From Candidatus Chisholmbacteria bacterium (GTDB lineage: Bacteria > Patescibacteriota > Microgenomatia > UBA1400 > Chisholmbacteraceae), in the NCBI GenBank assembly GCA_963704905.1, contig CAVPHZ010000002.1, positions 634-64,633 on the forward strand: DNA of 64,000 bases, written 5' to 3'. The notes below the pieces were generated by a model. It was given only the letters and a program-made list of their open reading frames with translations. It ran no database searches and had not been told where the DNA came from. Position 1 is the stretch's first letter; every line of letters begins with the position of its first letter. Positions 3-59,465 of this stretch are shown here, one piece after another. The position numbers and the translations under genes are program-made.

Positions 3-509
3 CCAAAAGATGTTAAAGAACTTTCAGCACTTGCAAAAAGCGTCGGTGAGGGAGATGGTCTTTTTGAAAAAATTGATCAGCTGAATGAGAATCGTATTCC
101 CAGACTTGTCAATGAATATAATGCCATTTCAGATATGAAAAATAAAACTGTCGCCGTCCTCGGTCTTTCATTTAAACCAAATACAGACGATATGCGAGAG
201 GCTCCGAGTATGAAATTTATATCGCTACTTATCCATTTGGGAGCCAAGGTGACTGCATATGATCCTAAGGCTATGGAAGAGGCAAAAAAACATTTCAAAG
301 ATACGATTCAGTACGCAAAAGATGCCTACCAAGCGGTCAAGGACGCAGATGTATTAATATTGCTGGTTGAATGGGATGAATTTAAGCAATTAAATTTGAA
401 GAAATTAAAAAACAACATGAAAGGTAATCTATTTATAGACACCCGAAATGTATATGATCCTAAAACAATAGAAAGAGAAGGATTTAAATATATAGGGATA
501 GGAAAATGA
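3..509 (+). CDS. nucleotide-sugar 6-dehydrogenase (UDP-glucose / GDP-mannose dehydrogenase family), C-terminal portion; 5' end lies outside window
   Basis: The frame is open from the window edge with no stop between nt 3 and the first Met of the ORF-track entry. The translation ...NKTVAVLGLSFKPNTDDMREAPS...KVTAYDPKA... matches the C-terminal UDP-binding domain signature (GLxFKpnTDDxREsP) of Ugd/AlgD-type dehydrogenases. The stop overlaps the next start (ATGA at 506-509). Confidence 0.8.
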   Translation, partial: PKDVKELSALAKSVGEGDGLFEKIDQLNENRIPRLVNEYNAISDMKNKTVAVLGLSFKPNTDDMREAPSMKFISLLIHLGAKVTAYDPKAMEEAKKHFKDTIQYAKDAYQAVKDADVLILLVEWDEFKQLNLKKLKNNMKGNLFIDTRNVYDPKTIEREGFKYIGIGK

Positions 510-1411
510 GAATTATCATTACAGGTGCATCAGGTTTTGCTGGAACGCACCTTGTCGAATACTACAGAAAAAATCGAAAAAAAGTTGATCTCATATGCTT
601 GACCTATGGTGGATTTGAGTCAATTACAGACTTGGTTCCGGAAGAAAATATTCTTGAATTAAATCTTTTAGAAAAAAATAAAGTTGATGAACTCATCAAT
701 GAAGTTGAACCAGATGCAGTTATTCATCTGGCAGCGCTGGCCTCAGTCGGTAAAAGTTTTCAAAACCCACAAATTGTATTAGAAAATAACATCCTCTCAA
801 CTGCAAATATTCTCGAATCCGTACGAAATCACGCCAAGAAGGCAAGAGTGTTGCTAATCGGCTCAGCTGACGAGTATGGGGCGATTGATCCTGAATCAGT
901 TCCTCTTAGTGAGGACACACCACTGCGACCGACAAGTCCATACGCAGTCTCAAAGGTCGCTGTTGATTATCTGGGATTGCAATATTTTCTGGCTTATAAC
1001 ATGGACATCATCAGACTACGGCCGTTTAACCACATTGGAGAAAACCAAGCAACAGGGTTCGTTGTATCTGACTTTGCCAAGCAAATCGTGGAAGCGGAGC
1101 TCGGGAAAAAAGAAGTTATTACGGTTGGGAATTTAAGCGCAGTAAGGGATTTTACCGATGTAAAAGACATGGTACGGGCATATGATATCGCTCTAGAAAA
1201 ATGCGCCAGCGGTGAAGTCTATAACGTTGGTTCTGGACATGGAGTTCGAATCCAAGATCTTCTTAATAAAATGATTACTCAAGCCAGAGAAGAAATACGG
1301 GTGGAAGTAGACTCGAAACTGTACAGACCCATTGATACCGAATCAATCATCGCAAATACAGAAAAATTCGAAAAAATACCGGTTGGCGAGCCAGAACTCC
1401 GCTGGATGTGA
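506..1411 (+). CDS. NAD-dependent epimerase/dehydratase (SDR), likely GDP-4-keto-6-deoxy-D-mannose reductase (Rmd-like) partnering Gmd
   Basis: N-terminal Rossmann motif IIITGASGFAGTHL and a catalytic YxxxK (YAVSKVAVDY). It sits immediately upstream of gmd, the classic gmd-rmd arrangement. Rmd versus another GDP-sugar epimerase/reductase cannot be decided from the sequence alone. Confidence 0.7.
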   Translation: MRIIITGASGFAGTHLVEYYRKNRKKVDLICLTYGGFESITDLVPEENILELNLLEKNKVDELINEVEPDAVIHLAALASVGKSFQNPQIVLENNILSTANILESVRNHAKKARVLLIGSADEYGAIDPESVPLSEDTPLRPTSPYAVSKVAVDYLGLQYFLAYNMDIIRLRPFNHIGENQATGFVVSDFAKQIVEAELGKKEVITVGNLSAVRDFTDVKDMVRAYDIALEKCASGEVYNVGSGHGVRIQDLLNKMITQAREEIRVEVDSKLYRPIDTESIIANTEKFEKIPVGEPELRWM

Positions 1412-1473: not shown

Positions 1474-2448
1474 ATGTCAAAGCAAAAGAAAAAAGCGCTC
1501 ATCACAGGTATAACCGGCCAGGATGGTTCGTACCTCGCAGAATTCTTACTTGATAAAGGGTATGCCGTCTTCGGACTTACTCGTCGTACCAGTACTCCCA
1601 ACTATGACCGGATTAAGAACATTGTGGAAAAAATAACCTTAGTCCAAGGAGATCTTCTCGATCAACATTCACTGACAATGGCCATTAAAGATGTTCAGCC
1701 AGACGAAGTTTATAACCTTGCTGCTCAAAGTTTCGTACCCACCTCATGGAACCAGCCGGTGTTAACAGGAGAGTTTACCGCTCTTGGAGTTACACGCATT
1801 CTTGAAGCGATACGTCTAGCCAAGCCCGATGCAAAATTTTATCAGGCGAGCTCGAGTGAAATGTTTGGAAAAGTCCGTGAGACACCACAAAATGAAAACA
1901 CACCATATTATCCCAGAAGCCCATACGGAGTAGCCAAAGTGTACGGACATTGGATTACGGTGAATTATCGAGAGTCTTATAACCTGTTCGCAGTATCTGG
2001 AATCTTGTTTAATCACGAATCTCCCCGACGAGGTCTTGAGTTTGTAACCAGGAAGATTACTCATGGAGTGGCACGAATCAAATTAGGTAAGCAAAAAAAG
2101 CTAGCACTGGGAAATCTAAGTTCAAAACGTGACTGGGGGTACGCCCCTGAGTATGTTGAAGCAATGTGGATGATGTTGCAGCAAGACAAACCAGAGGATT
2201 TTGTCATTGGAACCGGAGAAACGCATTCTCCAAAAGAGTTTGCTAAAGTTGCTTTCGAGTCAGTTGGTTTACATTGGCAAGACTATGTCGTAACAGATAA
2301 AAAATATATGAGGCCGGCTGAAGTAGATTATCTTGTAGCGGATCCAACGCAAGCAAAGAATAAGCTCGGCTGGAAATATAAGACTGGTTATAAACAACTC
2401 GCAGAGATTATGGTGCAAGCCGACATTGAACTGCTCAAGAGCCAATGA
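1474..2448 (+). CDS. gmd: GDP-mannose 4,6-dehydratase
   Basis: Hallmark Gmd N-terminus KKALITGITGQDGSYLAEFLLDKGY, the ...YNLAAQSFV... stretch and catalytic YxxxK (YGVAKVYGHW); the length (324 aa) is typical. An AGGAG RBS lies about 8 nt upstream. Confidence 0.93.
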   Translation: MSKQKKKALITGITGQDGSYLAEFLLDKGYAVFGLTRRTSTPNYDRIKNIVEKITLVQGDLLDQHSLTMAIKDVQPDEVYNLAAQSFVPTSWNQPVLTGEFTALGVTRILEAIRLAKPDAKFYQASSSEMFGKVRETPQNENTPYYPRSPYGVAKVYGHWITVNYRESYNLFAVSGILFNHESPRRGLEFVTRKITHGVARIKLGKQKKLALGNLSSKRDWGYAPEYVEAMWMMLQQDKPEDFVIGTGETHSPKEFAKVAFESVGLHWQDYVVTDKKYMRPAEVDYLVADPTQAKNKLGWKYKTGYKQLAEIMVQADIELLKSQ

Positions 2449-3555
2449 AAATCGTCATTATCCTTCCCACATACAACGAAGTAGAAAACATAGAACAGAT
2501 AATCGTAACGCTTCAAGAAAGTTCAAAAAAATATTCCCAACACCAAACACATCTTTTAGTAGTGGACGATAATTCACCAGACAAAACTGGCGATAAAGTA
2601 AAAGAACTTCAAGGAAAAGTACGATAATCTCCACTTATTATCTGGTGAAAAGAGAGGATTGGGTCAAGCCTATTTGAGGGGAATGGATTACGCCACCGAA
2701 AAACTCGGGGCTGAAGTGATGTTTGAGATCGACGCTGACTTTCAGCACGATCCACATGCCACACCGGAATTCATCTCAAAAATCGACGAAGGGTTCGATT
2801 TCGTTATTGGAAGTCGATACATCAAAGGTGGTTCAATTCCAAGCAATTGGGGTCTGAAAAGAAAAGTATTCAGTATCATAGGTAACCTAATCGTTCGTGG
2901 CGCATTAACAAATATTTCTGTTCATGACTGGACGTCGGGTTATCGGGCAATAAAAAGTTGGGTGTATAAAAAAGTTCGTGATGATTTAGCGCAATATAAT
3001 GGGTACACGTTTCAAGTAGCTTTCCTGCACAAAGCAATAGAGTCAAAAGCCAAGATTGTTGAAGTGCCAATTCAATTTGGTGAGAGAAAATATGGAAAAT
3101 CAAAAATTGGTGGAGAGTATATAAAAAATCTACTCCTGTATCTTATACACACAAGAATTCGATTCATCAAATTTCTCATCGTTGGAACCATCGGCTTCAT
3201 CGTAAATACCATAGGATTAGAAGGGTTCATCTACTTGGGCTTGAGACCATCATTAGCTGGAGCCGCCGGAGCGGAACTAGCTATCTTTTCTAATTTCACC
3301 TTAAATAATCTCTGGACATTCAAGGAAAATAAAATTACTTCAGTGAAACAGATCCCGGTCAAATTTCTTATCTTTAACGCTGCATCATTTGGCTCCGTTG
3401 TCATACAAGCAATTACGATTGAAATAGGATCTCGATTGTTTGGCGTGGAGCTCTATAGACTCTATTTTATTATCGGAGTTGGTATAGGCCTCATCTGGAA
3501 CTACGTTATGTATAATCGTGTCGTTTGGAAAACCCACAAAACCGATGTCAAATGA
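2445..3555 (+). pseudogene. polyprenyl-phosphate sugar synthase (DPM1/GtrB-like GT2) fused to a C-terminal GtrA-like 4-TM domain; reading frame broken by a +1 frameshift near nt 2616-2621, either an authentic pseudogene or an assembly error
   Basis: ORF 2445..2627 encodes the GT2 N-terminus (IVIILPTYNEVENI...LLVVDDNSPDKTGDKVKELQGK). Shifting +1 in the 'ggaaaagtac' tract continues directly as YDNLHLLSGEKRGLGQAYLRGMDYA...IDADFQHDP...IGSRYIKGG, the canonical DPM-synthase continuation, into ORF 2659..3555. The last ~120 aa (FLIVGTIGFIVNT...LWTFKEN...IWNYVMYNRVVWK) match the GtrA-family signature. Confidence 0.75.
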
Positions 3556-4292
3556 AAAAGGTACTTCCCAAACTTATAACTGTTACCCTTGCCGTACCAG
3601 TCTACAACGAACAACAACAACTTGAGAAAAATATCAAGAAGCTGAATTCCTTCATAACGGAAAACAAATTTTCTAACTTTAGCATTCAAATAGTCATTGT
3701 TGATAATGGCTCAACTGATGACACACCCAACATCGGCAATACGCTTGAGAGAGAAATAGAAAACGTAACATATCTTCGTTTAGAGGAAAAAGGAAGAGGA
3801 CGTGCCTTAAGAGCTATTTGGATGAAAAGTGAAGCAGATATTCTATCGTACATGGACGTCGATCTTTCCGCAGACCTCGAAAGCGTGTACCCACTTCTCA
3901 GTATAGTGGCATCAAAAGATGCAGAGATTGCCATCGGCTCAAGACTTATGAAGGAGTCAGATGTAAAGGGAAGAACTCGTGCTAGAGAGATCATGTCTCG
4001 AAGTTACAATTTCTTAGTTCAGGTGCTGCTGAATGTCAAGATAAAAGATGCACAATGTGGATTTAAGGCTATACAACGAGATGCATTCCGTACAATCGAG
4101 CCTAAGATACAAAATCAGAATTGGTTTTTTGATACAGAATTGCTAGTGATTGCCAGCAAAATGGGATTGAGGATTCATGAGATACCAGTCAAATGGACAG
4201 ATGATCCAGGTTCTACTGTCAAGATTGCCAGAACTGCAATGGAAGACATCCATGGGATAATGCGATTAGTAAAGGAAAAACCATGGCTCTAA
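3552..4292 (+). CDS. GT2 glycosyltransferase, dolichyl/polyprenyl-phosphate beta-glucosyltransferase (Alg5/DPG-synthase)-like
   Basis: VTLAVPVYNEQQQL...IVIVDNGSTDDT...EEKGRGRALRAIW...DVDLSADLE...AIGSR...CGFKAIQRDAF. The start at the internal Met (3552) gives an ATGA overlap with the upstream stop; the ORF-track start at 3525 is also possible. Confidence 0.85.
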   Translation: MKKVLPKLITVTLAVPVYNEQQQLEKNIKKLNSFITENKFSNFSIQIVIVDNGSTDDTPNIGNTLEREIENVTYLRLEEKGRGRALRAIWMKSEADILSYMDVDLSADLESVYPLLSIVASKDAEIAIGSRLMKESDVKGRTRAREIMSRSYNFLVQVLLNVKIKDAQCGFKAIQRDAFRTIEPKIQNQNWFFDTELLVIASKMGLRIHEIPVKWTDDPGSTVKIARTAMEDIHGIMRLVKEKPWL

Positions 4293-5824
4293 AAGTAAAA
4301 CATGTTGTAAAGTACTGTTGCGAAAATAAATTGGAGCTTCTGATCCTCACTTCGATTTTACTCATTGCACTATTTCTCAGAACCTACAAAATAAGAGAAT
4401 TTATCATATTTTTAGGGGACGAGGGTAGAGATGCGCTTGTCGTCAGGAGAATGATTGTCGATTACAAATTTACACTTCTCGGACCTACAGCATCAGTTGG
4501 TGGATTTTACTTAGGACCAATCTACTACTATTTCATGATTCCATTCCTTTGGCTCGCTAATTTTGACCCAGTAGGGCCAGCTGTGATGGTAGCGTTACTT
4601 GGAACAATAACGGTTGCTTTGGTGTACTGGACATCGAGAGAGTGGTTCGATGTTCGTACTGCAATGATCACCTCAATGGTCTATGCGACCGCACCGGGAA
4701 TAATTCTTTCCTCTCGTTCTTCATGGAATCCAAATATTATGCCGTTCTTTGCTCTGTTGGCGGTAGTTTCTCTCTATAAAGCTGCAACAAAAAACAAACT
4801 CATGTGGACATTCATCAGTGGAGCTTCCATTGGCGTGGCAATCCAATCACATTATCTTGGACTGATACTCGGGCCGATCATTGCAGTATCCGCATTAGTG
4901 TCCTTTGAAAAAAGACATTGGGTGAAAAATACGCTTACTGGAATAGTTGGCTTTTTCACTGGAGGATCGATGTACTTTGCTTTTGAGTTTAGACACAATT
5001 TTCCAAACATCAGATCAGTTCTAGAGTTCATCGGTCGTGGAGGCAACACAACCGGCCCGAGAAGCATAAACATTGTTTGGTTATTCATCGATATGGTGAA
5101 AAGAATGTATGAGGCGGCGTTCATAACCCTTGACTTGTCAATACGAAATTGGTTGGTGTACTTGAGTATTACTGGATTACTACTAGTGCTTATCAATCGT
5201 TGGAAGAAAAAAAGGAAACTTTCGCTTGGGTTTAAACTTCTTCTTGTGTGGCTGGTTGTCGGTATTTTTGGAATTGGATCGTATAAAGGTCAACTCTATC
5301 CTCATTATTTTGGGTTTCTTCTTCCTGTTCCGGTTTTGATACTTGGAGTCTTGCTTGGTCAGTTAGTCAAGAAAAATTCGACTAAATATGTTGCATATCT
5401 GCTTGTGGGTCTACTACTGTACTTGAATCTATCAACTCTTCCCATTTGGGGCAGAGGCTCTAACTTAATTGATCAGACTGAACGGGTTGCCGAGGCGATA
5501 GGAGAAATTACAGATGATGAACCATTTAATTTTGCATTGATCTCCTCAGGAAATTCAGATCATGCATACAGATATTTCCTGGAGATTAACGGAAAGAAGC
5601 CAAGAACACTTGAAGAAGAAGTCACACAACAACTCATTGTCATTTGCGAAGAAATCGATAATCCCTGCCTTCCTCTGGGACATCCTCTTTGGGAGGTAGC
5701 TGGATTTGGGCGGGCAGAGGTTGTGCTGGAGAAATCCGTAGATCCAGGGATTAAAATAGTAAAAATGGTCCATCACGAAGATTCTAAACATCTCATCGGA
5801 AGCCCAGCACCAAAAGGAGGATGA
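4283..5824 (+). CDS. GT-C fold polytopic membrane glycosyltransferase, ArnT/PMT-like (GT83/GT39-like) paralog
   Basis: Multi-TM protein with a first-loop acidic motif (FLGDEGRDALVVRRMI) and the YxxGPIYYY stretch. It is clearly paralogous to the 7713 gene and to the pseudogene at 11461. Confidence 0.7.
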   Translation: MALKVKHVVKYCCENKLELLILTSILLIALFLRTYKIREFIIFLGDEGRDALVVRRMIVDYKFTLLGPTASVGGFYLGPIYYYFMIPFLWLANFDPVGPAVMVALLGTITVALVYWTSREWFDVRTAMITSMVYATAPGIILSSRSSWNPNIMPFFALLAVVSLYKAATKNKLMWTFISGASIGVAIQSHYLGLILGPIIAVSALVSFEKRHWVKNTLTGIVGFFTGGSMYFAFEFRHNFPNIRSVLEFIGRGGNTTGPRSINIVWLFIDMVKRMYEAAFITLDLSIRNWLVYLSITGLLLVLINRWKKKRKLSLGFKLLLVWLVVGIFGIGSYKGQLYPHYFGFLLPVPVLILGVLLGQLVKKNSTKYVAYLLVGLLLYLNLSTLPIWGRGSNLIDQTERVAEAIGEITDDEPFNFALISSGNSDHAYRYFLEINGKKPRTLEEEVTQQLIVICEEIDNPCLPLGHPLWEVAGFGRAEVVLEKSVDPGIKIVKMVHHEDSKHLIGSPAPKGG

Positions 5825-5828
5825 GATT

Positions 5829-10596: not shown

Positions 10597-11483
10597 GGAG
10601 TATGAACATATCAACCACTTGTTATGTGTGCAGTCAGAGAAGAGTAAAAAAAGCCTTTGATAAGTTAGGTTGGACCATTTTGAGGTGCAGCGCCTGTGGA
10701 CTCTACAGCTTGAAATTTGAAGGTTCGTACGAAAAGTTCATTAAAGAGTACTACAACAAAAAGTTTTTTACTGGAAGCAACGAAAGAGCAGGGTATTTCG
10801 ACTACGAAGGTGACAAAGAAGCTGAAAGGCGAAATATGAATTCATATCTTGAGGGCATTCGATCATCAGTGAAAAAAGGCACACTTCTTGATGTAGGCTG
10901 TGCAACCGGACTTTTTATGATCGAGGCTGAAAAAGCAGGTTTTGAGGTGTATGGTGTAGATGTTTCAAAATACGCGATCGATATTGCCAAAAAACGTTTC
11001 AAAAACAAAGTCAAACAATCAAGTATCGAACAGGCTCACTTCAAAAAGAATACCTTTGATGTCATCACGCTCTTTGACGTCATTGAGCATGTAAGCAAGC
11101 CAAGAACAGTGCTTAAAAAGCTTCGCTCTCTACTTATGGACAATGGGCTATTAGTGATAAATACTGGTGATACTGGAAGCCTGTTTGCTAAGATGCAAGG
11201 CTCGTATTGGCATTTTTTTATCCCACCACAACATTTTTTCTATTTCAGCAAAAGTACATTAAGCAAACTTCTTTCGCAGGAAGGATTTGAAGTTCTTCGA
11301 GTTGAACACAAGGGGAAATGGGTGAGTCTTCGGTACCTTTTTCATCTCGCCCGACAAATTCAAAATGATATATTTGGAAAAATCGGCTTCTCTTTGGTTG
11401 GAAATAATGCCATTGGTAAGATACCGGTGTACCTTAATTTATTTGATAACATGACGGTATATGCCAAAAAAACTAACACGTAA
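10593..11483 (+). CDS. class I SAM-dependent methyltransferase with N-terminal CxxC...CxxC zinc ribbon
   Basis: CYVCSQ...CSACG zinc ribbon, then SAM motif I LLDVGCATGLF, EVYGVDVS and motif post-II FDVITLFDVIEHV. Start and stop overlap as ATGA. Confidence 0.85.
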   Translation: MRSMNISTTCYVCSQRRVKKAFDKLGWTILRCSACGLYSLKFEGSYEKFIKEYYNKKFFTGSNERAGYFDYEGDKEAERRNMNSYLEGIRSSVKKGTLLDVGCATGLFMIEAEKAGFEVYGVDVSKYAIDIAKKRFKNKVKQSSIEQAHFKKNTFDVITLFDVIEHVSKPRTVLKKLRSLLMDNGLLVINTGDTGSLFAKMQGSYWHFFIPPQHFFYFSKSTLSKLLSQEGFEVLRVEHKGKWVSLRYLFHLARQIQNDIFGKIGFSLVGNNAIGKIPVYLNLFDNMTVYAKKTNT

Positions 11484-12662
11484 GAGGAAAAAAAGCACAG
11501 GGAAATGGAGCAAGTCACATGTCTTATTGCTTATCTTCATCTCGATCATAGGCTTGGCACTCCGTTTAGGACCAGTTTTTCGCGATACTGTTCACTTCAG
11601 CTACGATCAAGGAGTCGATCTCGCGCTGGTTCGCACGCTAATCAATGACCATAAACTCAGCCTTATTGGTCGCTTCACAGGATTACAAGGTGTCTTCATG
11701 GGACCATATTGGACATTTGCATTAGCCATTCCCTATGTCATCAGTGGAGGAAATCCGGCAGCGAGTGTTATCGTTTTTTTCGCTTCTGGGAGTAGTTGCT
11801 ATATGGATTACTTACTCGATTGTCAGGAAATGTTAGATGAAAGGGTTGATCTATCGTGCTTTATATGTTGCTATTTCGAATCCTTTCGTCAGCGCGTGCT
11901 CACGTTGTTCTTTCACCCAGCCCTCTTCTCTACCTTATGATATTTTATATTTGGTTTCTATGGGAATTCGTCAAAATAAAAACCTGAGAGTTCTTCCCCT
12001 CCTTGCGTTGCTCATCAGTTTCTTTTTTCAACTGGAAATCGGTTTTGCCCTCTTTTTCTTACCAGCGACATTCATTGTGATTGTATCCTTTAAGGCTTTT
12101 CGGAAACTTACTTTAAAGCACCTCGGTATTGGTTAGTTGGTTTTTTCCTTCCTTTTCTACCTCAAGTACTTTTTGAACTTCGCCACGACTTTCTGATGAC
12201 AAATTCAGTATTGCGTTTACTCTCCGGAGAAAATACTAGCCTAGGAATTCAAGGCACAGGTCTGCTAGCCCGATTTAGCATACGAGCCGGATACATTATG
12301 GGAAGATTACGTGTCATCAGTGAGTTGGATCGGAAATAATTTACTAGCCACTCTCTTCATCACAGTACCTGCGATCTATGGAATTCAGGCTAAACTTAAA
12401 AATAACAGATGAAAAACTTCATCATCATGCTGTTCTAATCATCCTAACTATGTATGTGGGTTTTGCACTCTATCCCGCACCGGTGTGGGTGTGGTATCGA
12501 GCTGGTGTGCCAATTGTCTTTGTACTTCTTATTGCTATTGGCTGGACCAAGCTTATGGATGAAAACATATATGGAATAAGTTTAACGTCATTTTATTTTA
12601 CTGGACTTGTGCTGGTTAACATTAATCCAGTCATTCTAATATCACAATTTATTCGACATTGA
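11461..12662 (+). pseudogene. decayed ArnT/PMT-like GT-C paralog (multiple frameshifts, truncated)
   Basis: ORF 11461..11940 matches the N-terminus of the 7713/4283 family (FSYDQGVDLALVRTLINDHKLSLIGRFTGLQGVFMGPYWTFALAIPYVISGGNPAASVIVFFASGSS), then degenerates. A second frame (11837..12136) continues the homology (LPLLALLISFFFQLEIGFALFFLPATFIVIVSF versus 7713 VPLLSLILSGAVIHIHPTAITLAPIIFFLWRLW). A third fragment (12378..12662) is hydrophobic. The total remnant is shorter than intact paralogs. Confidence 0.7.
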
Positions 12663-13035
12663 GCAGTGGTGTTTCTTCTTGAAGAGCCAAAAACAGGCAA
12701 TTGACTCATCATGAAGGATGGTGGTGGGGATAAACTACGATCTTTACGTATATACTCCGCCAGTTTACACGTATGTTTGGGATCACATGATCTATTGGTA
12801 TGCAAGAGAACAGTTATGATAATCTACCAAATGATTATGGATATAGAGATCTCCAGAGGCTGAATAATTTTTATTTATTAATCGAACCAGATGACAATAC
12901 AAGACAGAATTGACGGATGGAAAGGTAACTTTACCAGTGAAGGTCAATCTACTCAAACCTGGCATCTCAACAGTGGCATAACCATAGAAAAATGGGAAGC
13001 AAATTCAAAGACAACTGAAGAGATACGCTAATCAC
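12663..13035 (+). promoter_or_regulatory. only sizeable non-coding gap in the window; presumed promoter/5' leader for the downstream YfhO-like operon
   Basis: About 370 nt without a convincing ORF, AT-rich, sitting between a pseudogene and a run of ATGA-coupled genes. No confident -35/-10 pair could be picked out by eye. Confidence 0.3.
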
Positions 13036-26970: not shown

Positions 26971-27875
26971 AAATATCGGTAGTAATCACCGCTCATAACG
27001 AGGAAAAGATGATTGAGGATTGCCTCAAGTCTGTAAACTGGGCAAATGAGATTATTCTCGTAGATAACGAATCAAGTGACAATACTGGCACAATTGCGAA
27101 AAAATTTACAGATAAAATATTCACTCATAAAAACGATCCAATAAATTTGAATGACAGCAAAAACTTTGGATTTACTAAGGCTTCCGGAGATTGGATCTTA
27201 AGTATAGATGCGGACGAACGAATTAGTCCTGAACTTCACAAAGAGATAATCCAAAGACTCATGGGCGCTCCTGACTATGTCGATGGCTATCTTATACCAA
27301 GAAAAAATATCATCTTTGGAAAATGGATTAAGCATGGTCTGTGGTATCCAGACCACCAACTGAGACTATTTAGAAAAGGTAAAGGAAAATTCCCAAGCAA
27401 ACACAACCACGAACTTCTTGAAGTTAAGGGTCAGACATTAGAACTTAAACAACACATCGTCCACCTCAACTACACCTCAGTAGATCAATATCTTAACAAA
27501 ATCGCTTATTACTACTCTGACAATGAAGCTGAACAATACCTCAATTCTGGGAAAAAGCTCCAGTGGTATGATGCTATTCGAATGCCAGCTTCAGATTTTC
27601 TCCTTAATTTCTTCGCCAGAAGTGGGTACAAAGACGGTTTACATGGGTTAGCATTGAGTTTACTGCAGTCGTTTTACATGTTCATTGTGTTTGCTAAAGT
27701 TTGGGAAAAACAAGGATTTTGGGAATACAATAGTAAAGAATTTCTTGAGGATACAAAAAAAGAATTCATTTCAAAAGGAAAAGAATTGCGGTACTGGATC
27801 AGTCGAACAAGGGAAGAAAATAGCGGCGATATTGAACGACTACTGTTGAAAGTCAAACGGAAACTACTTCCATGA
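26967..27875 (+). CDS. GT2 glycosyltransferase, WaaE/KdtX-like subfamily
   Basis: ISVVITAHNEEKMIEDCLKSVNWANEIILVDNESSDNTGTIAKKF...WILSIDADERISPEL. Paralogous to the 36140 and 55548 genes. Confidence 0.8.
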   Translation: MKISVVITAHNEEKMIEDCLKSVNWANEIILVDNESSDNTGTIAKKFTDKIFTHKNDPINLNDSKNFGFTKASGDWILSIDADERISPELHKEIIQRLMGAPDYVDGYLIPRKNIIFGKWIKHGLWYPDHQLRLFRKGKGKFPSKHNHELLEVKGQTLELKQHIVHLNYTSVDQYLNKIAYYYSDNEAEQYLNSGKKLQWYDAIRMPASDFLLNFFARSGYKDGLHGLALSLLQSFYMFIVFAKVWEKQGFWEYNSKEFLEDTKKEFISKGKELRYWISRTREENSGDIERLLLKVKRKLLP

Positions 27876-29014
27876 GTAGCCGAAGGGCATACGGAGTACT
27901 TCTCTTAATCATTACTCTTTTCTTTCTTTCATACCTTGTACAAGGACTTGGATTTTTATATGGAGATAACTTGGGTCAGAGAATTCCAGGCATATATTTT
28001 TGGAAAAATGAAGTAACCAGCGGACGATTACCACTTTGGAATCCATATATTCTTGGGGGATTACCTTTTCTCGCAGATCTTTCTCATAACGCGCTTTCAC
28101 CGACCAATATTGTCTATCTAGTAATGTCAGTTCCCTATGCTATTACCGCGTTAACAATAATCTACATCGCCATCGCAGCTTGTGCAACCTACGCGTATGT
28201 ACATAGCGTAACCAACAAAACGCTGCCGAGCATGTTTTCTGCGATTACATTTGCCCTATCAGGTACTGTAATCGCATCAGTAAATGACATCAACTCTTTG
28301 CAGGGTATTACACTTGTTCCGCTTGTGTTGTATGGAGCTCATCGTTTCACAGAAAAAGCAAACAATACCAGAGCATTAATACTTATCTTTGCATTAGTAT
28401 TTCAATTTTTATCCTCACATCCACAGTACAGTTACTACTCATGGATTCTGGTCGCAAGTTACATTGTTGTGTTTGGAACAGGGAAACTGAAAGTAAGAGT
28501 AGCAAAAACATTTGCTGTATTTCTCTTTACTCTCGGACTAATCGCCGTGCAGCTCTTACCTTTTTTAGAGCTTGCTCGAGAGTCATATCGTCCGCAAACA
28601 AGTGAGTTCGCAGCCCAAAATCAACTCAAAATCATTGAACTGCCATCATTTATACTCGCTGATCTATTCGGATCGTGGAGAAGTGGTTCATCTTGGGGTC
28701 CAGGAGCACAGTTAGAAACAGGTCTGGCAAATTCTGAGGGGTATCTTGGCATCCTACCGCTTTTGTTTGCGGTTATCGCAGTCTTAAAGAGGAAATCGAA
28801 ACGGACAAAGTATTGGGTTGTAGCAGGACTCATTGCACTTCTGCTGAGCCTAGGAAATCAAACACCGTTGTATGAATTAGTAAGGCGAGCCTTACCACTT
28901 TTTTCAAATTTCCGATCACCAATACGGATGTTATCTATCTACAGCTTCTCGGTATCAGTATTAGCTGGAGTAGGCCTTTCAGCAATTAAAGTGGAAAGGA
29001 AAAGGAAGAAATGA
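27872..29014 (+). CDS. YfhO-like GT-C membrane protein, N-terminal half (split gene)
   Basis: GRLPLWNPYILGGLPFLADLSHNALSPTNIVYLVMS is the YfhO loop signature. The protein ends after SFSVSVLAGVGLSAIK, the position where full-length paralogs continue (compare FAASVLAGYGFDAW in the 13036 protein). Confidence 0.7.
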   Translation: MSSRRAYGVLLLIITLFFLSYLVQGLGFLYGDNLGQRIPGIYFWKNEVTSGRLPLWNPYILGGLPFLADLSHNALSPTNIVYLVMSVPYAITALTIIYIAIAACATYAYVHSVTNKTLPSMFSAITFALSGTVIASVNDINSLQGITLVPLVLYGAHRFTEKANNTRALILIFALVFQFLSSHPQYSYYSWILVASYIVVFGTGKLKVRVAKTFAVFLFTLGLIAVQLLPFLELARESYRPQTSEFAAQNQLKIIELPSFILADLFGSWRSGSSWGPGAQLETGLANSEGYLGILPLLFAVIAVLKRKSKRTKYWVVAGLIALLLSLGNQTPLYELVRRALPLFSNFRSPIRMLSIYSFSVSVLAGVGLSAIKVERKRKK

Positions 29015-30153
29015 GGCAGATTCTCTATTCAATTGTAGGCACAACTTTCCAAGCTGTGAAACGCCGGCCAATGACAGAAAGTGCAGCTTTTTCTCAAGAT
29101 AAAGTAAATATTATTCTCGATACGAATATCCAAAATATTTTCATCGTACTCGCTATCATAATCATTGCATTGTATGTGGTTAAGAAAAAACGACACCTGT
29201 TGTACCAAGTGATAGTGATCTTAACAATCATAGATCTCTTTACTTTTTCCAAAGGTAATCTCATCACGTTCCCAATATCAATTACCAGTCTAGAAAGCAG
29301 CGCTTCTAAATGGCTTAAACAAAATCTTGGTAATTATCGATTTGTATCAACAAGCGGGAACTTTCCCTATACAGGCTTGGGTGTGTACTGGACACATTTA
29401 AGAGCCAGGGAGCCGTTTTCTCCAAATAACCTTACAGGTGAAGAGTTAAAGCAATTCACAAGACTAAAAAAAGAACTGACGGTCATTCCGGAGAATCAGG
29501 GTCTCAGGAGTAACATCGCTGATGCATCTGGCTACGCTGCAGCAATACCATCAAATTATCTCCATTTTTGGAATGAAGAGCCAAAAAGCCCCAACACAAC
29601 ATCCATTCAAGACTTAAACAGCAACAAACTTAACTTGGCTGGAGTTAAGTACGTTATTACTGGCTATCCCGATGATTATCTAGCTTCACTCGACTCAGTT
29701 CAATTTGAAAGAGTATTTGGTGAAGACCATGTTCAAATTTACGAAAATCAGGATGTAATTCCTCGAGTATTTTTACTCGATAACAACCAAGATCAATATC
29801 CCGCTCAAATTATTGACTACTCTCCAAATCGAGTACTAATTGAAACCGAACTAGATAGGATTTCTGAACTTGTTTTGACTGACACTTTTTACCCTGGCTG
29901 GACTGCGTATGTTGACGGAGAACCTTCGTCTGTAGAATCTTATGAAGGTGCATTTCGAAAGGTAGCTCTTCCGTTCGGGAAGCACATTGTTGAATTTCGC
30001 TATGAACCCGATTCTCTCAGGTTGGGTGCTATAATTTCAGCAAGCACTGTAGTTTTACTTTTCTCAAGCTTAATATGGCAAAAACAAAAGTCGCAATTAT
30101 CATCCTCAATTTCAAAGGCAAACAAGACACGATCGAATGCCTTCAGTCGCTAA
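29011..30153 (+). CDS. YfhO-like GT-C membrane protein, C-terminal half (split gene)
   Basis: Begins with TM helices and ends with the YfhO-type C-terminal domain DTFYPGWTAYVDGEPSSVESYEGAFRKVALPFGKHIVEFRYEPD. It is in a different frame from the N-terminal half, with an ATGA junction. Confidence 0.7.
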   Translation: MRQILYSIVGTTFQAVKRRPMTESAAFSQDKVNIILDTNIQNIFIVLAIIIIALYVVKKKRHLLYQVIVILTIIDLFTFSKGNLITFPISITSLESSASKWLKQNLGNYRFVSTSGNFPYTGLGVYWTHLRAREPFSPNNLTGEELKQFTRLKKELTVIPENQGLRSNIADASGYAAAIPSNYLHFWNEEPKSPNTTSIQDLNSNKLNLAGVKYVITGYPDDYLASLDSVQFERVFGEDHVQIYENQDVIPRVFLLDNNQDQYPAQIIDYSPNRVLIETELDRISELVLTDTFYPGWTAYVDGEPSSVESYEGAFRKVALPFGKHIVEFRYEPDSLRLGAIISASTVVLLFSSLIWQKQKSQLSSSISKANKTRSNAFSR

Positions 30154-31007
30154 AGAATATCAAAACTGATTCAGTAATTGTCAGCACCATTGTTGTTGAC
30201 AACGCTTCAAGCGACTCGTCAGCTACTGAAATACATAAGCAGTTTCCAAACATTGATCTTATCGAAAACAATACTAATCTGGGTTTTAGCGAGGGAAACA
30301 ATATTGGCATTCGCAAGGCACTTGTTGATGGTGCTGACTTTATCTTGCTTCTCAACAACGATACGACAGTTCATTCAGATCTATTAGAAGAACTTGTATC
30401 AGCATCGAACCAGGAGAATGCCGATGTCATCTCCCCAAAAATCTACTTTACGCCTGGAAAAGAATTTCATCAGGACAGATATAAACCACATGAGCGGGGA
30501 AAAGTAATTTGGTATGCCGGGGGACTCATCGATTGGAATAATGTCCTTACATCACATCGAGGAGTTGATGAGGTGGACGAAGGACAATTCGATGAGTTTT
30601 CCAGGACAGAATTTGTAACTGGCTGTGCAATGTTTGTGAAATATAAGGTATTTGAAGATATTGGCTTGCTTGATCCAATGCTATTTGCCTACTTTGAAGA
30701 TGCAGATTTTTCCATGAGGGCCAAGAATGCCGGCTACAAAGTTGCCTATGCACCAAAAGCCGTACTATGGCACAAGAACGCTGCCAGTTTCCAAGGTTCA
30801 GGATCAGAATTTCAAGATTACTTTGTCACTAAAAACCGACTGCACTTCGGTTTGCGCTACGCTCCACTGCGTGCCAAAATTGCTCTACTTCGTGAAGGAT
30901 TACGATATATTTTCGAAGGACCACAGAGAAAACGAGAAGCTATCATCGATGCGCTGTTGAGAAAATCGCCAGACCAGAATAAAGTAACATCGCTTTTGAA
31001 AACCTAG
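30075..31007 (+). CDS. GT2 glycosyltransferase (RfbF/WbbL-like rhamnosyltransferase-type subfamily)
   Basis: VAIIILNFKGKQDTIECLQSL...IVVDNASSDSS...NLGFSEGNNIGI...LLLNNDT. The start overlaps the upstream gene by about 79 nt if the first Met is used. Confidence 0.78.
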   Translation: MAKTKVAIIILNFKGKQDTIECLQSLKNIKTDSVIVSTIVVDNASSDSSATEIHKQFPNIDLIENNTNLGFSEGNNIGIRKALVDGADFILLLNNDTTVHSDLLEELVSASNQENADVISPKIYFTPGKEFHQDRYKPHERGKVIWYAGGLIDWNNVLTSHRGVDEVDEGQFDEFSRTEFVTGCAMFVKYKVFEDIGLLDPMLFAYFEDADFSMRAKNAGYKVAYAPKAVLWHKNAASFQGSGSEFQDYFVTKNRLHFGLRYAPLRAKIALLREGLRYIFEGPQRKREAIIDALLRKSPDQNKVTSLLKT

Positions 31008-53803: not shown

Positions 53804-55551
53804 CGATCAGTAAAAATAATTCAACAAAAACCATCTTCATTCTGTTGCTTCTCCTGGTAGCAATAATTCCGGTTATCAAAGCATTATTCATTCCAGGATT
53901 TTATACTAGCCATGATGGAATTACGCACACCGCTCGTCTAGCTAATTTTTACTACGCCCTAAAGGAAGGGCAATTCCCTCCACAACTTGCTCCAAAATTG
54001 TTTGGAAACCTTGGTTTTCCTATATTTATTTTTATCTACCCACTTCCGTACCTTCTAGGAGCAATAGCTCATACTGTTGGGCTAACGTTTACGCAGTCAT
54101 TTGAGCTTGTCATCGGATCAAGTATAGTGCTCTCAGCAGTAACGATGTATCTGTTTGCAAGAGAGCACTTTGGTAAGATAGGCGGATTGTTAACTGCACT
54201 TTTCTATACATGGGCACCATATCGTTTATCTCAAGTGTATGTTCGTGGAGCGCTAGCTGAAAGCTTTGCCTATATATTCATTCCACTTGTTCTGCTATCG
54301 CTGCTAACGCTCACTAAAGAAAAAAAGCATATAAGACGCTGGATTGGAATCGGAAGCCTGTCAGTAGCAGGATTGCTTTTATCTCATCAATTAGTATCCA
54401 TCATGTTTCTTCCAGTTATTGCACTATATGGCGGGTATCTCTTAATACAGGTAAAAGAAAAAAGATTGTTGATAAGAAACAGTATTCTCATGGCAGTTCT
54501 GGGATTTTCAATAAGCGCGTATATCTACCTTCCTTCATTATTTGAGAGAAAATATCTTCACTTTGATGAACTCATCAGTTATTATCAGGAGCACTTCATT
54601 ACTGTTCCTCAACTCATCCACTCACCTTGGAGTTACGGCTTTTCAATGAAAGGGACAGAGCTTGATGATATGTCATTCCAAGTGGGTCTAACGCATTTGT
54701 TGGTAGTTGGAATCTCAACACTTACATTAGGGTTTTTAATCCTTAAACATAAAAAGAAAGTTATTCATAACCCAAACATCCTCTTAGCCCTTATCAGTCT
54801 TTTCCTATTTACCGCAGCAACAAGTCTTACACTAGAGCATCCGTTTGTTCTCTGGTTGTGGAAAAATGTTCCAGGCATTTCGATTGTAGACTTCCCGTGG
54901 AGGTGGATTGGTGTTTCAACATTTTCCGCTAGCCTGCTAGCAGGTTGGCTTACAAATAAATTAGATAATCGATTACTTTTAATTCCACTTATATTTTTAT
55001 TGTTTGTTGCAAATCGAAATCATCTTCGCATTAATCAAACTCTAATCAGGGATGATGAATTTTTCAAATATTATCTTGATACTGCCACTTGGCAAAATGA
55101 GTTCTTACCAAAATGGAGAAAGACGAATAAGTGGCAAAACATTGAAAACGACTTTCATATAGAAGAAGGGGATGCAAACGTAGAAATCATCTCGTCTAAA
55201 ACACAGGAATTAGCACTAAAAATTACCACAAACGACGAGTCAACAATTGTTATACACCGTTTATACTTTCCAGGCTGGACGGTTAAGAATGATGGTATTT
55301 TACTTAAACAAGGCGAAGACGTAAGAGTCACGGAGGAAATTCAAATTGAAACACAAAACACACCATACATCGATCTCTCTGGTCTTATCAAAGTAAATAT
55401 CTCACCCGGTACCCATCGTCTCGAAACAAAATTCGAATCAACTAACCTAAGAAAGTTGGGTATGTTATTGTCTGTCGTTGGAGTGATAACAGCTGTCTCT
55501 TTGATCCTAAACAATCGCCCTCCTGCATTAACGAAACATAAAAAACTATGA
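53800..55551 (+). CDS. GT-C-like polytopic membrane protein, divergent YfhO-related family (paralog of 18436/21141)
   Basis: PGFYTSHDGITHTARLANFYYALKEGQFPPQLAPKLFGNLGFPIFIFIYPLPYLL...YTWAPYRLSQVYVRGALAE, with C-terminal LYFPGWTVKNDGILL. Confidence 0.6.
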   Translation: MTISKNNSTKTIFILLLLLVAIIPVIKALFIPGFYTSHDGITHTARLANFYYALKEGQFPPQLAPKLFGNLGFPIFIFIYPLPYLLGAIAHTVGLTFTQSFELVIGSSIVLSAVTMYLFAREHFGKIGGLLTALFYTWAPYRLSQVYVRGALAESFAYIFIPLVLLSLLTLTKEKKHIRRWIGIGSLSVAGLLLSHQLVSIMFLPVIALYGGYLLIQVKEKRLLIRNSILMAVLGFSISAYIYLPSLFERKYLHFDELISYYQEHFITVPQLIHSPWSYGFSMKGTELDDMSFQVGLTHLLVVGISTLTLGFLILKHKKKVIHNPNILLALISLFLFTAATSLTLEHPFVLWLWKNVPGISIVDFPWRWIGVSTFSASLLAGWLTNKLDNRLLLIPLIFLLFVANRNHLRINQTLIRDDEFFKYYLDTATWQNEFLPKWRKTNKWQNIENDFHIEEGDANVEIISSKTQELALKITTNDESTIVIHRLYFPGWTVKNDGILLKQGEDVRVTEEIQIETQNTPYIDLSGLIKVNISPGTHRLETKFESTNLRKLGMLLSVVGVITAVSLILNNRPPALTKHKKL

Positions 55552-56339
55552 TACATAAGAAGCGCCTTTCGGTTGTCCTGGCGACCTATAATGAGAAAGA
55601 TAATATTAAAAATTGCTTGGATTCAGTAAAAGGTCTCGCGGAAGAAATAATAGTTGTAGATGGTTCATCAGAGGACGACACTCGAAATATTGCCAGAAAT
55701 CTAGGGGCCAGAGTGATTAAAACATCCAATAAACCAATGTTTCACACCAATAAACAAATGGCAATTGATAAAGCGAAAGGTGACTGGATTCTTCAACTTG
55801 ATGCTGATGAAGTAGTTGATAAAGAGTTATATTCTGAGATGGCCAATCTTCTAAATCAGGATAACAAGTATGCTGCATTTTCAATTTCACGAAAAAATTT
55901 CTTTCTCGGCAAATGGCTTAAAAAAGGCGGGCTGTATCCTGACCGAGTCATTAGATTATTTAAAAAAGGTAAAGCCTATCTTCCACAGAAAAGCGTTCAT
56001 GAACAGTTAGAGGTAGAAGGCAATGTTGGCGAACTTCATGGCCACTTGAATCATCACACAGCACCAACGTTTAGTCGATATATTACAAATGCAAATCGCT
56101 ACACATCACTAACTGCTGCTGAGCTGACAAAATCAGGGACAGAGACAAGCATGCAACAAACGATATACTATATTGTGTTTAAACCGCTGTCGATATTCTT
56201 CTCATTATTTGTTCGCCATAAAGGAATGTATGATGGGTACAACGGATTTATTTTTGCGTTATTCTCAGCGCTCCATTGGCCGATAGCCTATATGAAACAT
56301 TGGGAAAATATTCACGTCAAAAAGATAAACATCTCATGA
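55548..56339 (+). CDS. GT2 glycosyltransferase, WaaE/KdtX-like subfamily
   Basis: LSVVLATYNEKDNIKNCLDSVKGLAEEIIVVDGSSEDDTRNIARNLGARVI...WILQLDADEVV. Confidence 0.82.
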   Translation: MIHKKRLSVVLATYNEKDNIKNCLDSVKGLAEEIIVVDGSSEDDTRNIARNLGARVIKTSNKPMFHTNKQMAIDKAKGDWILQLDADEVVDKELYSEMANLLNQDNKYAAFSISRKNFFLGKWLKKGGLYPDRVIRLFKKGKAYLPQKSVHEQLEVEGNVGELHGHLNHHTAPTFSRYITNANRYTSLTAAELTKSGTETSMQQTIYYIVFKPLSIFFSLFVRHKGMYDGYNGFIFALFSALHWPIAYMKHWENIHVKKINIS

Positions 56340-57406: not shown

Positions 57407-58548
57407 AAGAAAAATCAACAATATCGTGGATACTAAAAGTACTAATTGGCTGGAGATTGGTACTACTGGTTGTTGCCATGTATGCAATTGCAGCCATCCC
57501 ATTCAAAGAGAGTTTTCCCTACTGGGAAACATTACTTGCTCCAAATGGACATCCGCTGTTTTGGAGTTGGGGAAACTTTGACGGTGTTCATTACATCACA
57601 ATAGCTAAACAAGGATATTCGGCACAATTTACTCAAGCCTTTTTTCCGTTGTATCCACTTCTTATGCGCTTCGTTGCGCGATTAACCGGGGAGTACATCT
57701 CTGCTGGTTTACTCATCTCTCACATCTCAGCAGTCGTCGCGTTTATTTTATTCTATAAACTTGTTCGTCTGGATAAAGGTGAAGGTACCGCAAAAAAAAC
57801 CCTTATCCACCTTCTCTTATTCCCAACTGCCTTTTATTTCGGGGCGCTGTACTCGGAGAGTCTCTTTCTTGCGTTTGTCTTGGGATCATTTTATGCTGCT
57901 AGAAAAAAGCATTGGTGGATCGCCGGATTATTGGGTGCAGCTGCATCAGCCACGCGAATATTCGGAATATTTTTACTCCCATCTCTTCTTCTCGAATGGT
58001 ACTACGGGAGAGGGAAGAAAACAGCGTTCTCACGCAGAGAGCTTTTCCAAGCGGTGTTACCAATTCTTTTATCAGCGACAGGCCTTTTACTCTACATGTA
58101 TTACCTCAACCGCGCTTTTTCAGATCCTATTCTATTTCTCAATTCCCAACCTGCATTTGGGGCTCAGCGAAGTAGTGATAAATTAATTCTTCTCTATCAA
58201 GTTTTTTGGCGTTATACCAAGATGTTAGCTACAGTCGATATCAATTCTCTACTGTATTTCACGGTTTCCCAAGAAATGCTCAGCGGGTTTCTTTTTCTGG
58301 GACTAACAGTGCTTGCTTTCAAATACACACGCCTTTCCTATGCGATTTTTGGCTTATTTTCCTATCTAGCCCCAACACTTACCGGGACCTTCTCAAGCAT
58401 GCCCAGATATGTGCTGATATTGTTCCCTTCATTTATGATATTAGGCATGGTAAAAAATCCCCGATTTCATAAGCTCTGGTGGTTCGTCAGTGTTATACTA
58501 CTAGGGATAAATACGGCATTATTTGTAAGAGGATATTGGGTTGCATGA
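57403..58548 (+). CDS. GT-C-like membrane protein, PIG-V/DUF2029-like mannosyltransferase-type
   Basis: NFDGVHYITIAKQGYSAQFTQAFFPLYPLL is the typical PIG-V (GT76)-like loop signature (DG.HY..IA..GY......AFFP.YP); multi-TM. Confidence 0.55.
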   Translation: MKEKSTISWILKVLIGWRLVLLVVAMYAIAAIPFKESFPYWETLLAPNGHPLFWSWGNFDGVHYITIAKQGYSAQFTQAFFPLYPLLMRFVARLTGEYISAGLLISHISAVVAFILFYKLVRLDKGEGTAKKTLIHLLLFPTAFYFGALYSESLFLAFVLGSFYAARKKHWWIAGLLGAAASATRIFGIFLLPSLLLEWYYGRGKKTAFSRRELFQAVLPILLSATGLLLYMYYLNRAFSDPILFLNSQPAFGAQRSSDKLILLYQVFWRYTKMLATVDINSLLYFTVSQEMLSGFLFLGLTVLAFKYTRLSYAIFGLFSYLAPTLTGTFSSMPRYVLILFPSFMILGMVKNPRFHKLWWFVSVILLGINTALFVRGYWVA

Positions 58549-59465
58549 AAATACTAGTTACAGGTGGAGCGGGTTTCATCGCTTCCCACATTGTTGATAA
58601 GTACATTGAGCTCGGACACGAAGTTGCTATTCTTGATGATCTTTCAACTGGGGTTAGTCAGAACATCAACAGCAAGTCACACTTTATAAAAGTTGATATT
58701 CGTAGTCAAGAGGCTGCCGAGCTTCTCAGTGATTTTAAGCCAGAAATCGTAAATCATCACGCTGCCCAGATAGATCTGCGAAAATCTGTGGAAAATCCTG
58801 CACATGATGCAGACATTAATATTTTGGGTTTACTCAATCTCATGCAGGCAATCATTTTAATTGAATCTGTAAAAAAAGTTATTTTCGCTTCAACTGGGGG
58901 AGCCATCTATGGTGATACAGAAACACTTCCCACTCCCGAAGACTATCCCACGAGTCCAGCATCACCATATGGAATTGCAAAGCTTGCAAGTGAATACTAC
59001 CTTAGCTATTATCAGAAAATACATAACATACCGTTTGTGAGCCTCCGCTATGGCAATGTGTATGGACCACGACAAAATCCTCACGGTGAAGCAGGCGTGG
59101 TCGCAATTTTTTCAAAAATGCTTCTTAAAGGCTTGCATCCTTTGATCAATGGAAACGGATTACAGACAAGGGACTTTGTATTCGTTTCTGATGTTGTGGA
59201 AGCAAACGTCAAGGCGCTTGAGGAGAGCACCAACGGAATTTACAATATTGCCACCGGGAAAGAAACCAACATCAACACAATATTTGAGAGTCTAGCACAG
59301 GAAGTTTCTCCCGAGCTAAGAGCAAAGCATGGTCCTGCAAAACCCGGAGAGCAAAAACGGAGTTCGCTCGATTGCTCCAAGGCCAAACAAGAACTCGGTT
59401 GGGAAGCCAAAACTGATCTTCAATCTGGAATTAAGCAAACGCTTTCCTACTTCAAAACAGCATGA
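58545..59465 (+). CDS. NAD-dependent epimerase/dehydratase (UDP-hexose 4-epimerase-like SDR)
   Basis: MKILVTGGAGFIASHIVDKY Rossmann motif and catalytic YGIAKLASEYY. Confidence 0.8.
   Translation: MKILVTGGAGFIASHIVDKYIELGHEVAILDDLSTGVSQNINSKSHFIKVDIRSQEAAELLSDFKPEIVNHHAAQIDLRKSVENPAHDADINILGLLNLMQAIILIESVKKVIFASTGGAIYGDTETLPTPEDYPTSPASPYGIAKLASEYYLSYYQKIHNIPFVSLRYGNVYGPRQNPHGEAGVVAIFSKMLLKGLHPLINGNGLQTRDFVFVSDVVEANVKALEESTNGIYNIATGKETNINTIFESLAQEVSPELRAKHGPAKPGEQKRSSLDCSKAKQELGWEAKTDLQSGIKQTLSYFKTA

Follow-up and report, generated by a model that had tools for sequence, protein, structure and literature searches.

A one-base frame break in a GT2::GtrA synthase gene of Candidatus Chisholmbacteria, probably a consensus indel error

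When a conserved gene is read in two frames in a deposited genome, does the break record a mutation, a recoding event or an error of the assembly? This question is raised by a stretch of 64,000 nucleotides from a Candidatus Chisholmbacteria bacterium (assembly GCA_963704905.1, contig CAVPHZ010000002.1, positions 634 to 64,633 of the forward strand), which we call the window and in which all positions below are counted. Near its left end, a gene for a polyprenyl-phosphate glycosyltransferase with a GT2 catalytic domain and a GtrA-type membrane domain (the synthase) is interrupted by an apparent +1 frameshift in a run of four A residues. Judging from the assembled sequence, we consider the shift to be probably a sequencing or assembly artefact, and not a mutation of the organism. 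The biological significance of the frameshift is, most likely, nil.

Two reading frames of one synthase gene

The open reading frame (ORF) in frame 0 reads MKIVIILPTYNE...KELQGKVR*, which can also be given as MKIVIILPTYNEVENIEQ...VVDDNSPDKTGDKVKELQGK and then V, R and TAA. The +1 frame stays open between 2602 and the TGA stop at 3553-3555 and reads ...KYDNLHLLSGEKRGLGQAYLRGM..., K-YDNLHLLSGEKRGLGQAYLRGM..., so that the two frames overlap at 2602..2627. An earlier note on this DNA had described these frames and the continuation in +1 at the four-A run, and the sequence and its ORFs read exactly so. A conserved Leu-Gln pair is encoded at 2607-2612 in frame 0, and a conserved Tyr at 2620-2622 in frame +1. 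Because both elements are conserved, the surplus base must be confined to the GGAAAAG between them. Alignment with four orthologous DNA sequences (MAFFT) showed exactly one extra base, seen as one gap column, at this spot, and frameshift-aware protein-to-DNA alignment recovered a single +1 event with each of two independent guide proteins.

The public gene calls hold the 5' piece as a protein of 60 residues (P0121), the final two codons of which (V, R) are out-of-frame read-through, and the 3' piece as a protein of 290 residues that starts at ATG 2683 (P0001). The 5' piece matches positions 2-49 of the Pfam GT2 profile (E 2e-8), and the 3' piece matches positions 67-155 of the same profile and the complete GtrA_DPMS_TM domain (E 5.6e-16). 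On a hidden Markov model built from 22 orthologues, the 5' piece occupies positions 1-58 and the 3' piece positions 53-371. The ORF at 2445..2627 and the +1 frame each hold half of a single gene, and a chance match is ruled out. The peptide at the junction would be ELQGKYDNLHLLSGEK with recoding or an intact allele, and ELQGKVR with termination. Coordinates of the gene, and of the other frame breaks discussed below, are collected in Table 1.

Table 1. Features of the interrupted synthase gene and other one-base frame breaks in the window
Feature	Position	Strand	Description
Site of the single extra base, GGAAAAG	2613..2619	+	A4 run at 2615-2618; minus one A gives GGA AAG TAC = G K Y
5' piece	2445..2627	+	Frame 0, 60 codons and TAA; GT-A N-terminus (PTYNE, VVDDNSPD)
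3' piece	2602..3555	+	Frame +1; remainder of the GT-A domain and domain of four transmembrane helices
Whole gene after removal of one base	2445..3555	+	Polyprenyl-phosphate glycosyltransferase of 369 residues, PfDPMS-like architecture
GT2 (GT-A) catalytic domain	2457..2937	+	Residues 5-164 of the repaired protein; frame break inside; DAD motif at 2731-2739
GtrA_DPMS_TM four-helix membrane domain	3169..3528	+	Residues 242-361 of the repaired protein
Epimerase break	1371..1376	+	Gene 506..1411 as read; A6 run short of one A compared with four orthologous DNAs
GT-C break cluster	11773..12896	+	9-13 one-base breaks in a full-length PMT_2-type GT-C gene, 11461..13035
YfhO switch zone, AGTGGAAAGGAAAAGGAAGAAATGA	28990..29014	+	Divides a YfhO-family gene into 27872..29014 and 29011..30153

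The protein obtained after removal of one base (the repaired protein) scored 84.7 bits against PF00535 (GT2; Pfam gathering cut-off 23.3) over residues 5-164, a cut-off that each fragment also passes alone (34.8 and 30.4 bits). It scored 58.5 bits against PF04138 (GtrA_DPMS_TM; cut-off 26.1), where the match spans profile positions 1-117 of 117. These results agree with the proposal in the earlier note of a DPM-synthase-like GT2 gene with a GtrA-type tail of four transmembrane (TM) helices. A phmmer search of the PDB aligned residues 1-363 of the repaired protein with residues 23-374 of 5mlz_A (E 1.5e-45), colinear from end to end. This is the DPM synthase of P. furiosus (PfDPMS), a type-III DPMS in which a GT2 domain of GT-A type is followed on a single chain by a GtrA-like four-helix TM domain (PDB 5MLZ/5MM0/5MM1; PMC5526996, PMC12992685), as it is in the repaired protein. 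The motifs PTYNE, DDxSPD and DAD, and the Asn of TM helix 1, are common to both proteins in the alignment, with the DAD at residues 96-98 of the repaired protein aligned with the DAD of PfDPMS. The note had spoken of a fusion; GT2 and GtrA do lie on one chain, but this is the native architecture of the P. furiosus-type synthase and nothing special. Unlike the archaeal PfDPMS, the repaired protein belongs to a bacterial host of the Microgenomates/Patescibacteria type and aligns only distantly, its lipid carrier would be bacterial polyprenyl phosphate, and its deposited copy is frame-broken.

The repaired protein also resembles the GtrB/ArnC/PgfS-type enzymes, which belong to the same GT2 catalytic family and have the same role of providing lipid-linked monosaccharides for GT-C enzymes. 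The operon context is similar as well, with GT2 genes beside PMT_2, YfhO and MptA_B GT-C genes. In GtrB and ArnC, however, the enzyme carries a two-helix TM hairpin of its own and GtrA is a separate protein; in the repaired protein the GtrA-type domain is fused. None of the NCBIfam equivalog cut-offs in the tested set, which also included AglJ, was approached, the best scores being 68.5 bits for PgfS (cut-off 500), 55.6 for ArnC (529) and 55.4 for PpgS (370). Family membership indicates that the synthase would transfer a sugar from a nucleotide-sugar to a lipid carrier that is used by many downstream GT-C enzymes. The GDP-mannose-dehydratase-like and epimerase genes upstream suggest that a GDP-sugar pathway may be encoded nearby.

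The gene belongs to a known and very large family, of which it is an ordinary member, and more than 6,000 database proteins match the repaired protein at E <= 1e-20. Under a strict motif definition that takes in active-site, substrate-binding and TM-domain motifs, type-III DPMS is reported from archaea only (PMC12992685). We observed thousands of bacterial proteins, mostly from Patescibacteria, with the single-chain GT2 + GtrA_DPMS_TM architecture of PfDPMS and end-to-end alignment with 5MLZ, a comparison made by architecture and alignment. Between its interface helices and TM helix 1, the repaired protein has a linker (residues 236-241, window ~3150-3170) that is ~6 residues shorter (HTRI------RFIKF) than in nearly all homologues, with a similar gap only in P0074.

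Conservation of the gene and absence of the break in relatives

In an alignment with 22 homologues, the repaired protein runs without a gap through the junction. It keeps all 85 positions that are invariant among the homologues, and 40 of the 42 that are near-invariant. The single one-base event is the only lesion in the 1.1-kb gene, and a test of the synthase for decay found no stops, no loss of invariant residues and no larger indels. Because the invariant residues are all kept, the lesion is either extremely recent or not real.

The only database entries that are 100% identical to the repaired protein are the two fragments P0001 and P0121, with one member each and from the same contig. The next relatives are 73-68% identical and 372-378 residues long. 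All listed homologues (<=73% identical, 367-405 residues) are single ORFs, and those with names come from Chisholm-, Beckwith- and Gottesmanbacteria (Microgenomates/Patescibacteria). The gene is also uninterrupted in seven orthologous DNA loci with the same operon order. Thus, the comparison with orthologues that the earlier note had proposed showed that the interruption is absent from every relative. The same break in related genomes, which the note would have taken as a sign of functional significance, was seen in none of the 22 homologues and none of the seven DNA loci. Nothing above 73% identity was found by protein search in JGI and Logan data. A scan of genome_contigs with the repaired protein found no same-species genome, the closest relative being 47% identical, and metagenome_contigs, scanned with a pattern of 30 bases in which either AAA or AAAA is allowed, contained no match.

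Origin of the extra base

The synthase gene is not alone in being broken by a single base, and three further places in the window showed frame breaks of this kind (Table 1). In the epimerase gene, the conserved C-terminus, NTGWRARTPLDVTLKRVLHYWRNKII..., lies in another frame, which runs to a TAG at 1471-1473 that abuts the ATG (1474) of the GDP-mannose-dehydratase-like gene; the deposited epimerase ends in a wrong tail of 13 residues and is ~20 residues short. The YfhO-family gene is present as two ORFs of 380 residues each, with an ATGA overlap in an A-rich zone of 25 nt, and its halves match Pfam profile positions 61-357 and 754-835. The YfhO homologues are all single ORFs of 709-779 residues or longer, but only 28-30% identical, the closest one included, and a natural split of this gene keeps some probability.

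Most of the breaks fall in the GT-C gene at 11461..13035. A paralogue used as guide recovered the N-terminus only, and the breaks were mapped by a homologue search with a stitched query. The corrections comprised 7-9 insertions and 2-4 deletions, with 0-2 in-frame stops with most guide proteins and up to 3 with P0129. The corrected protein is full length and colinear with its orthologues (P0122-P0130), and the orthologous genes are intact in the three related loci L085-L087. Residue spacing is kept across the switches, as in WYAREQ/YDNLPNDYGY and FYLLIEPDD/IQDRIDGWKGNF (the slash marks the switch). Of 130 residues invariant in nine orthologues, the corrected protein keeps 117, a share that falls inside the 80-99% kept by intact orthologues that were left out singly. 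This gene looks like an unpolished consensus patch, and not an old pseudogene. An argument that a complete lack of in-frame stops speaks cleanly against decay was weakened, since other guides gave 9-11 frameshifts with 1-3 stops. As controls, nine other genes in the synteny-checked region 1474-17702 were without a frame event, and Pfam scans of the remaining ORFs of the window showed no further split domains. Apparent frame events at 6596 and 15385 were alignment-edge artefacts at gene starts, which were not reproduced with another guide or with tblastn.

Because the same window has several other one-base breaks in otherwise conserved genes, an artefact is the most likely origin of the extra base in the synthase gene. 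The earlier note had listed an assembly or homopolymer error as its first candidate, and these breaks favour it. Every event is of one base, insertions predominate, and the conserved residues are intact; the isolated events lie in A-runs of highly conserved, translationally coupled genes. Natural decay of bacterial pseudogenes is deletion-biased, with indels of varied sizes and with substitutions that create stops and erode conserved residues. The single-base, insertion-rich and residue-preserving pattern is unlike such decay, and looks like the signature of a read or consensus error. Taken together, the indels of the window are most plausibly technical, and would be errors left over in an assembly that was made from long reads, or was prone to indels for another reason, and in which one patch of 1.1 kb was poorly polished. 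At the synthase, one spurious base would have been introduced by sequencing or consensus calling, most simply through an AAA read as AAAA at 2615-2618. The 9-13 events in 1.1 kb would fit a patch that was locally unpolished or bridged. The synthase would then be a normal, functional enzyme, a single chain with a cytoplasmic GT2 domain and a GtrA-like membrane domain of four helices.

Fragmentation of gene calls by homopolymer indels is documented for the consensus of long-read metagenome-assembled genomes (PMC9262707), as are indel errors in low-coverage or unpolished regions (PMC9262707; PMC12007338). The window resembles indel-prone assemblies in that a one-base error in the length of an A-run divides a conserved gene into two calls, in that there are several such breaks on one contig, and in having a local unpolished patch. 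It differs in having few events outside the 1.1-kb patch (3 in about 63 kb).

Several observations weigh against an artefact. The error rate outside the patch is low, as seen in the nine intact synteny-checked genes and the intact remainder covered by the Pfam scans. With some guides, the GT-C gene is better fitted by 9 frameshifts and 1-3 in-frame stops, which would suit a true pseudogene in a decaying island. True frameshift mutations also favour homopolymers, and the context of a single site does not discriminate between the two. Searches of the protein collection, genome_contigs and metagenome_contigs yielded no same-species sequence, and no intact allele was seen from an independent assembly. 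The artefact was judged from the assembled sequence alone.

The extra A could also be a real and recent frameshift in the population, which would truncate the synthase after 58 native residues and inactivate it, as part of an ongoing loss of glycosylation genes from a redundant island. We consider this unlikely, although several points are in its favour. The deposited sequence does carry the break, its pieces are called as separate public proteins, and homopolymers are preferred sites of frameshift mutation. The loss could be buffered by five other GT2 paralogues in the window that resemble polyprenyl-phosphate synthases; the GT-C gene at 11461-13035, with its frameshifts and 1-3 stops, can be read as a pseudogene; and the breaks in the epimerase and YfhO genes could likewise be real lesions of the same island. 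However, with all 85 invariant residues kept and no second lesion in 1.1 kb, a real mutation would have to be very recent, and all related loci have the gene intact within a translationally coupled operon. No other GT2 in the window has a GtrA domain. Three to four independent inactivating indels without clear nonsense or missense damage, in a streamlined region that is 95% coding, would be an unusual mutational spectrum, and the events of the GT-C cluster are of one base only and insertion-biased, with normal residue conservation. A real break would be an ordinary recent loss-of-function mutation. The product would stop after 58 native and two out-of-frame residues, and the enzyme would be dead; the 3' ORF, which lacks the first beta-alpha-beta unit with the nucleotide-binding motifs PTYNE and DDxSPD, would make nothing useful. 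Coupling to the downstream GT2 and GT-C genes could suffer, and the paralogues without GtrA would be a partial back-up only. We also considered a functional enzyme split into two polypeptides and rejected it, as a plausible start behind a spaced Shine-Dalgarno (SD) sequence is lacking in the 3' ORF (GAGGGG lies 1 nt before ATG 2683) and the piece of 60 residues is part of the same Rossmann-like fold.

Alternatively, the frameshift could be real and decoded by programmed +1 frameshifting, in which tRNA-Lys slips at GGA-AAA-G from AAA to AAG, perhaps with the aid of the SD-like AAGGA, to give a regulated full-length enzyme. The sequence AAA-G does permit tRNA-Lys to re-pair in the +1 frame, and AAGGA (2611-2615) directly abuts the AAA codon, with the 0-frame stop two codons on, but none of these features is specific to recoding sites; in the intact genes of the window, AAA-G occurs in frame 234 times and GGA-AAA-G 11 times. 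As in prfB-type +1 frameshifting, the full-length product would require a +1 shift, and the slippery codon is preceded by a purine-rich SD-like motif. Unlike in the prfB type, the A site holds neither a stop nor a rare codon: in frame 0 it is occupied by GUA, a common codon (30% of Val codons, 361 of 1194), and the stop comes two codons after the slip site. The SD-like motif has zero spacing, compared with the roughly 3 nt generally known for prfB, and the window contains no Rfam element. Known recoding sites are conserved, whereas this shift is absent from the aligned homologues (0/22) and the orthologous DNA loci (0/7). Programmed frameshifting, already the less likely candidate in the earlier note, also ranks low here, and we regard it as very improbable. 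The same holds, with as little probability, for an extra A that is real and fixed, and from which low-level +1 slippage of tRNA-Lys at GGA-AAA-G would make the full-length synthase. Recoding is the only scenario that would be of wider interest. Slippage would then limit the first step of lipid-carrier loading for a very large glycosylation island of a Patescibacteria-type bacterium. The A-run could, finally, be a phase-variable (contingency) or transcriptional-slippage tract that switches the gene on and off, as a homopolymer break at the start of a surface-glycosylation operon might suggest. Contingency and slippage-prone tracts are typically at least 7-9 bases long, whereas this tract has only 4 (which the earlier note had also found shorter than typical phase-variation tracts); there are 356 A4 and 293 T4 runs in the window, and no extended tract is present at this position in the orthologues. 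Such a switch is extremely improbable, and even together recoding and phase variation would account for the break with only a very small probability.

If the extra base is a consensus error, as we think probable, the break is mainly a quality flag: the window is to be treated as carrying consensus indel errors, and frameshifts in it need read support. Taken at face value, the sequence would score the synthase, the epimerase, one PMT_2-type GT-C and one YfhO as pseudogenes. Gene loss would then be inferred wrongly when the metabolism or glycosylation of this small-genome bacterium is reconstructed.

The operon and the glycosylation island

The window has 39.9% G+C, is ~95% coding and carries nearly all of its genes on the + strand. 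The order at its left end is UDP-glucose dehydrogenase, epimerase, GDP-mannose-dehydratase-like (1474-2445), GT2::GtrA, GT2, PMT_2, GT2, MptA_B, PMT_2, methyltransferase, PMT_2, YfhO and YfhO, and this order is kept in the seven related loci (L081-L087). The genes of the operon are coupled by ATGA or TAGATG junctions. The ATG of the synthase (2445) overlaps the upstream stop in an ATGA, and at the other end its stop (3553-3555) overlaps the ATG of the following GT2 gene (3552). The synthase had been said to begin the first GT2 + GT-C cassette. This needs a small correction, as it is the fourth gene of the tightly coupled operon, and a second GT2 (3552..4292) intervenes before the first GT-C (4283..5824). 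The synthase is the sole GT2 in the window with a GtrA domain, and the five GT2 paralogues of the same subfamily are without it.

Nearly all of the window (1-64000) is occupied by one co-oriented glycosylation island with roughly twenty genes for GT-C-type membrane glycosyltransferases, which include PMT_2, YfhO, MptA_B/GT87, PTPS_related and PIG-V-like types. Interleaved with these are genes for GT2 polyprenyl-phosphate synthase-like proteins, GT4 enzymes and methyltransferases, and a Polysacc_synt flippase. The island is an unusually large investment for a small-genome organism of the Patescibacteria type. Apparent coding gaps at 30359-30726, 55552-56275 and 58549-59461 arose from greedy ORF selection and are filled by ORFs at 30075..31007, 55548..56339 and 58479..59465. 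A tRNA scan and an Rfam scan of the window found none.

Two further GT-C genes of the island, both on the + strand, were noted. The gene at 9073-10596 (507 residues) is absent from the otherwise syntenic loci L085-L087, and its PMT_2 match starts at residue 220, as against ~70 in paralogues; this gene is a paralogue that was inserted or rearranged and has an N-terminal extension. The ORF at 18436-21153 (905 residues) has a PTPS_related match at residues 78-368 and a second, PMT_2 match at residues 608-748, and may hold two GT-C modules in one protein. This ORF is probably natural, because L087 has a counterpart of 903 residues.

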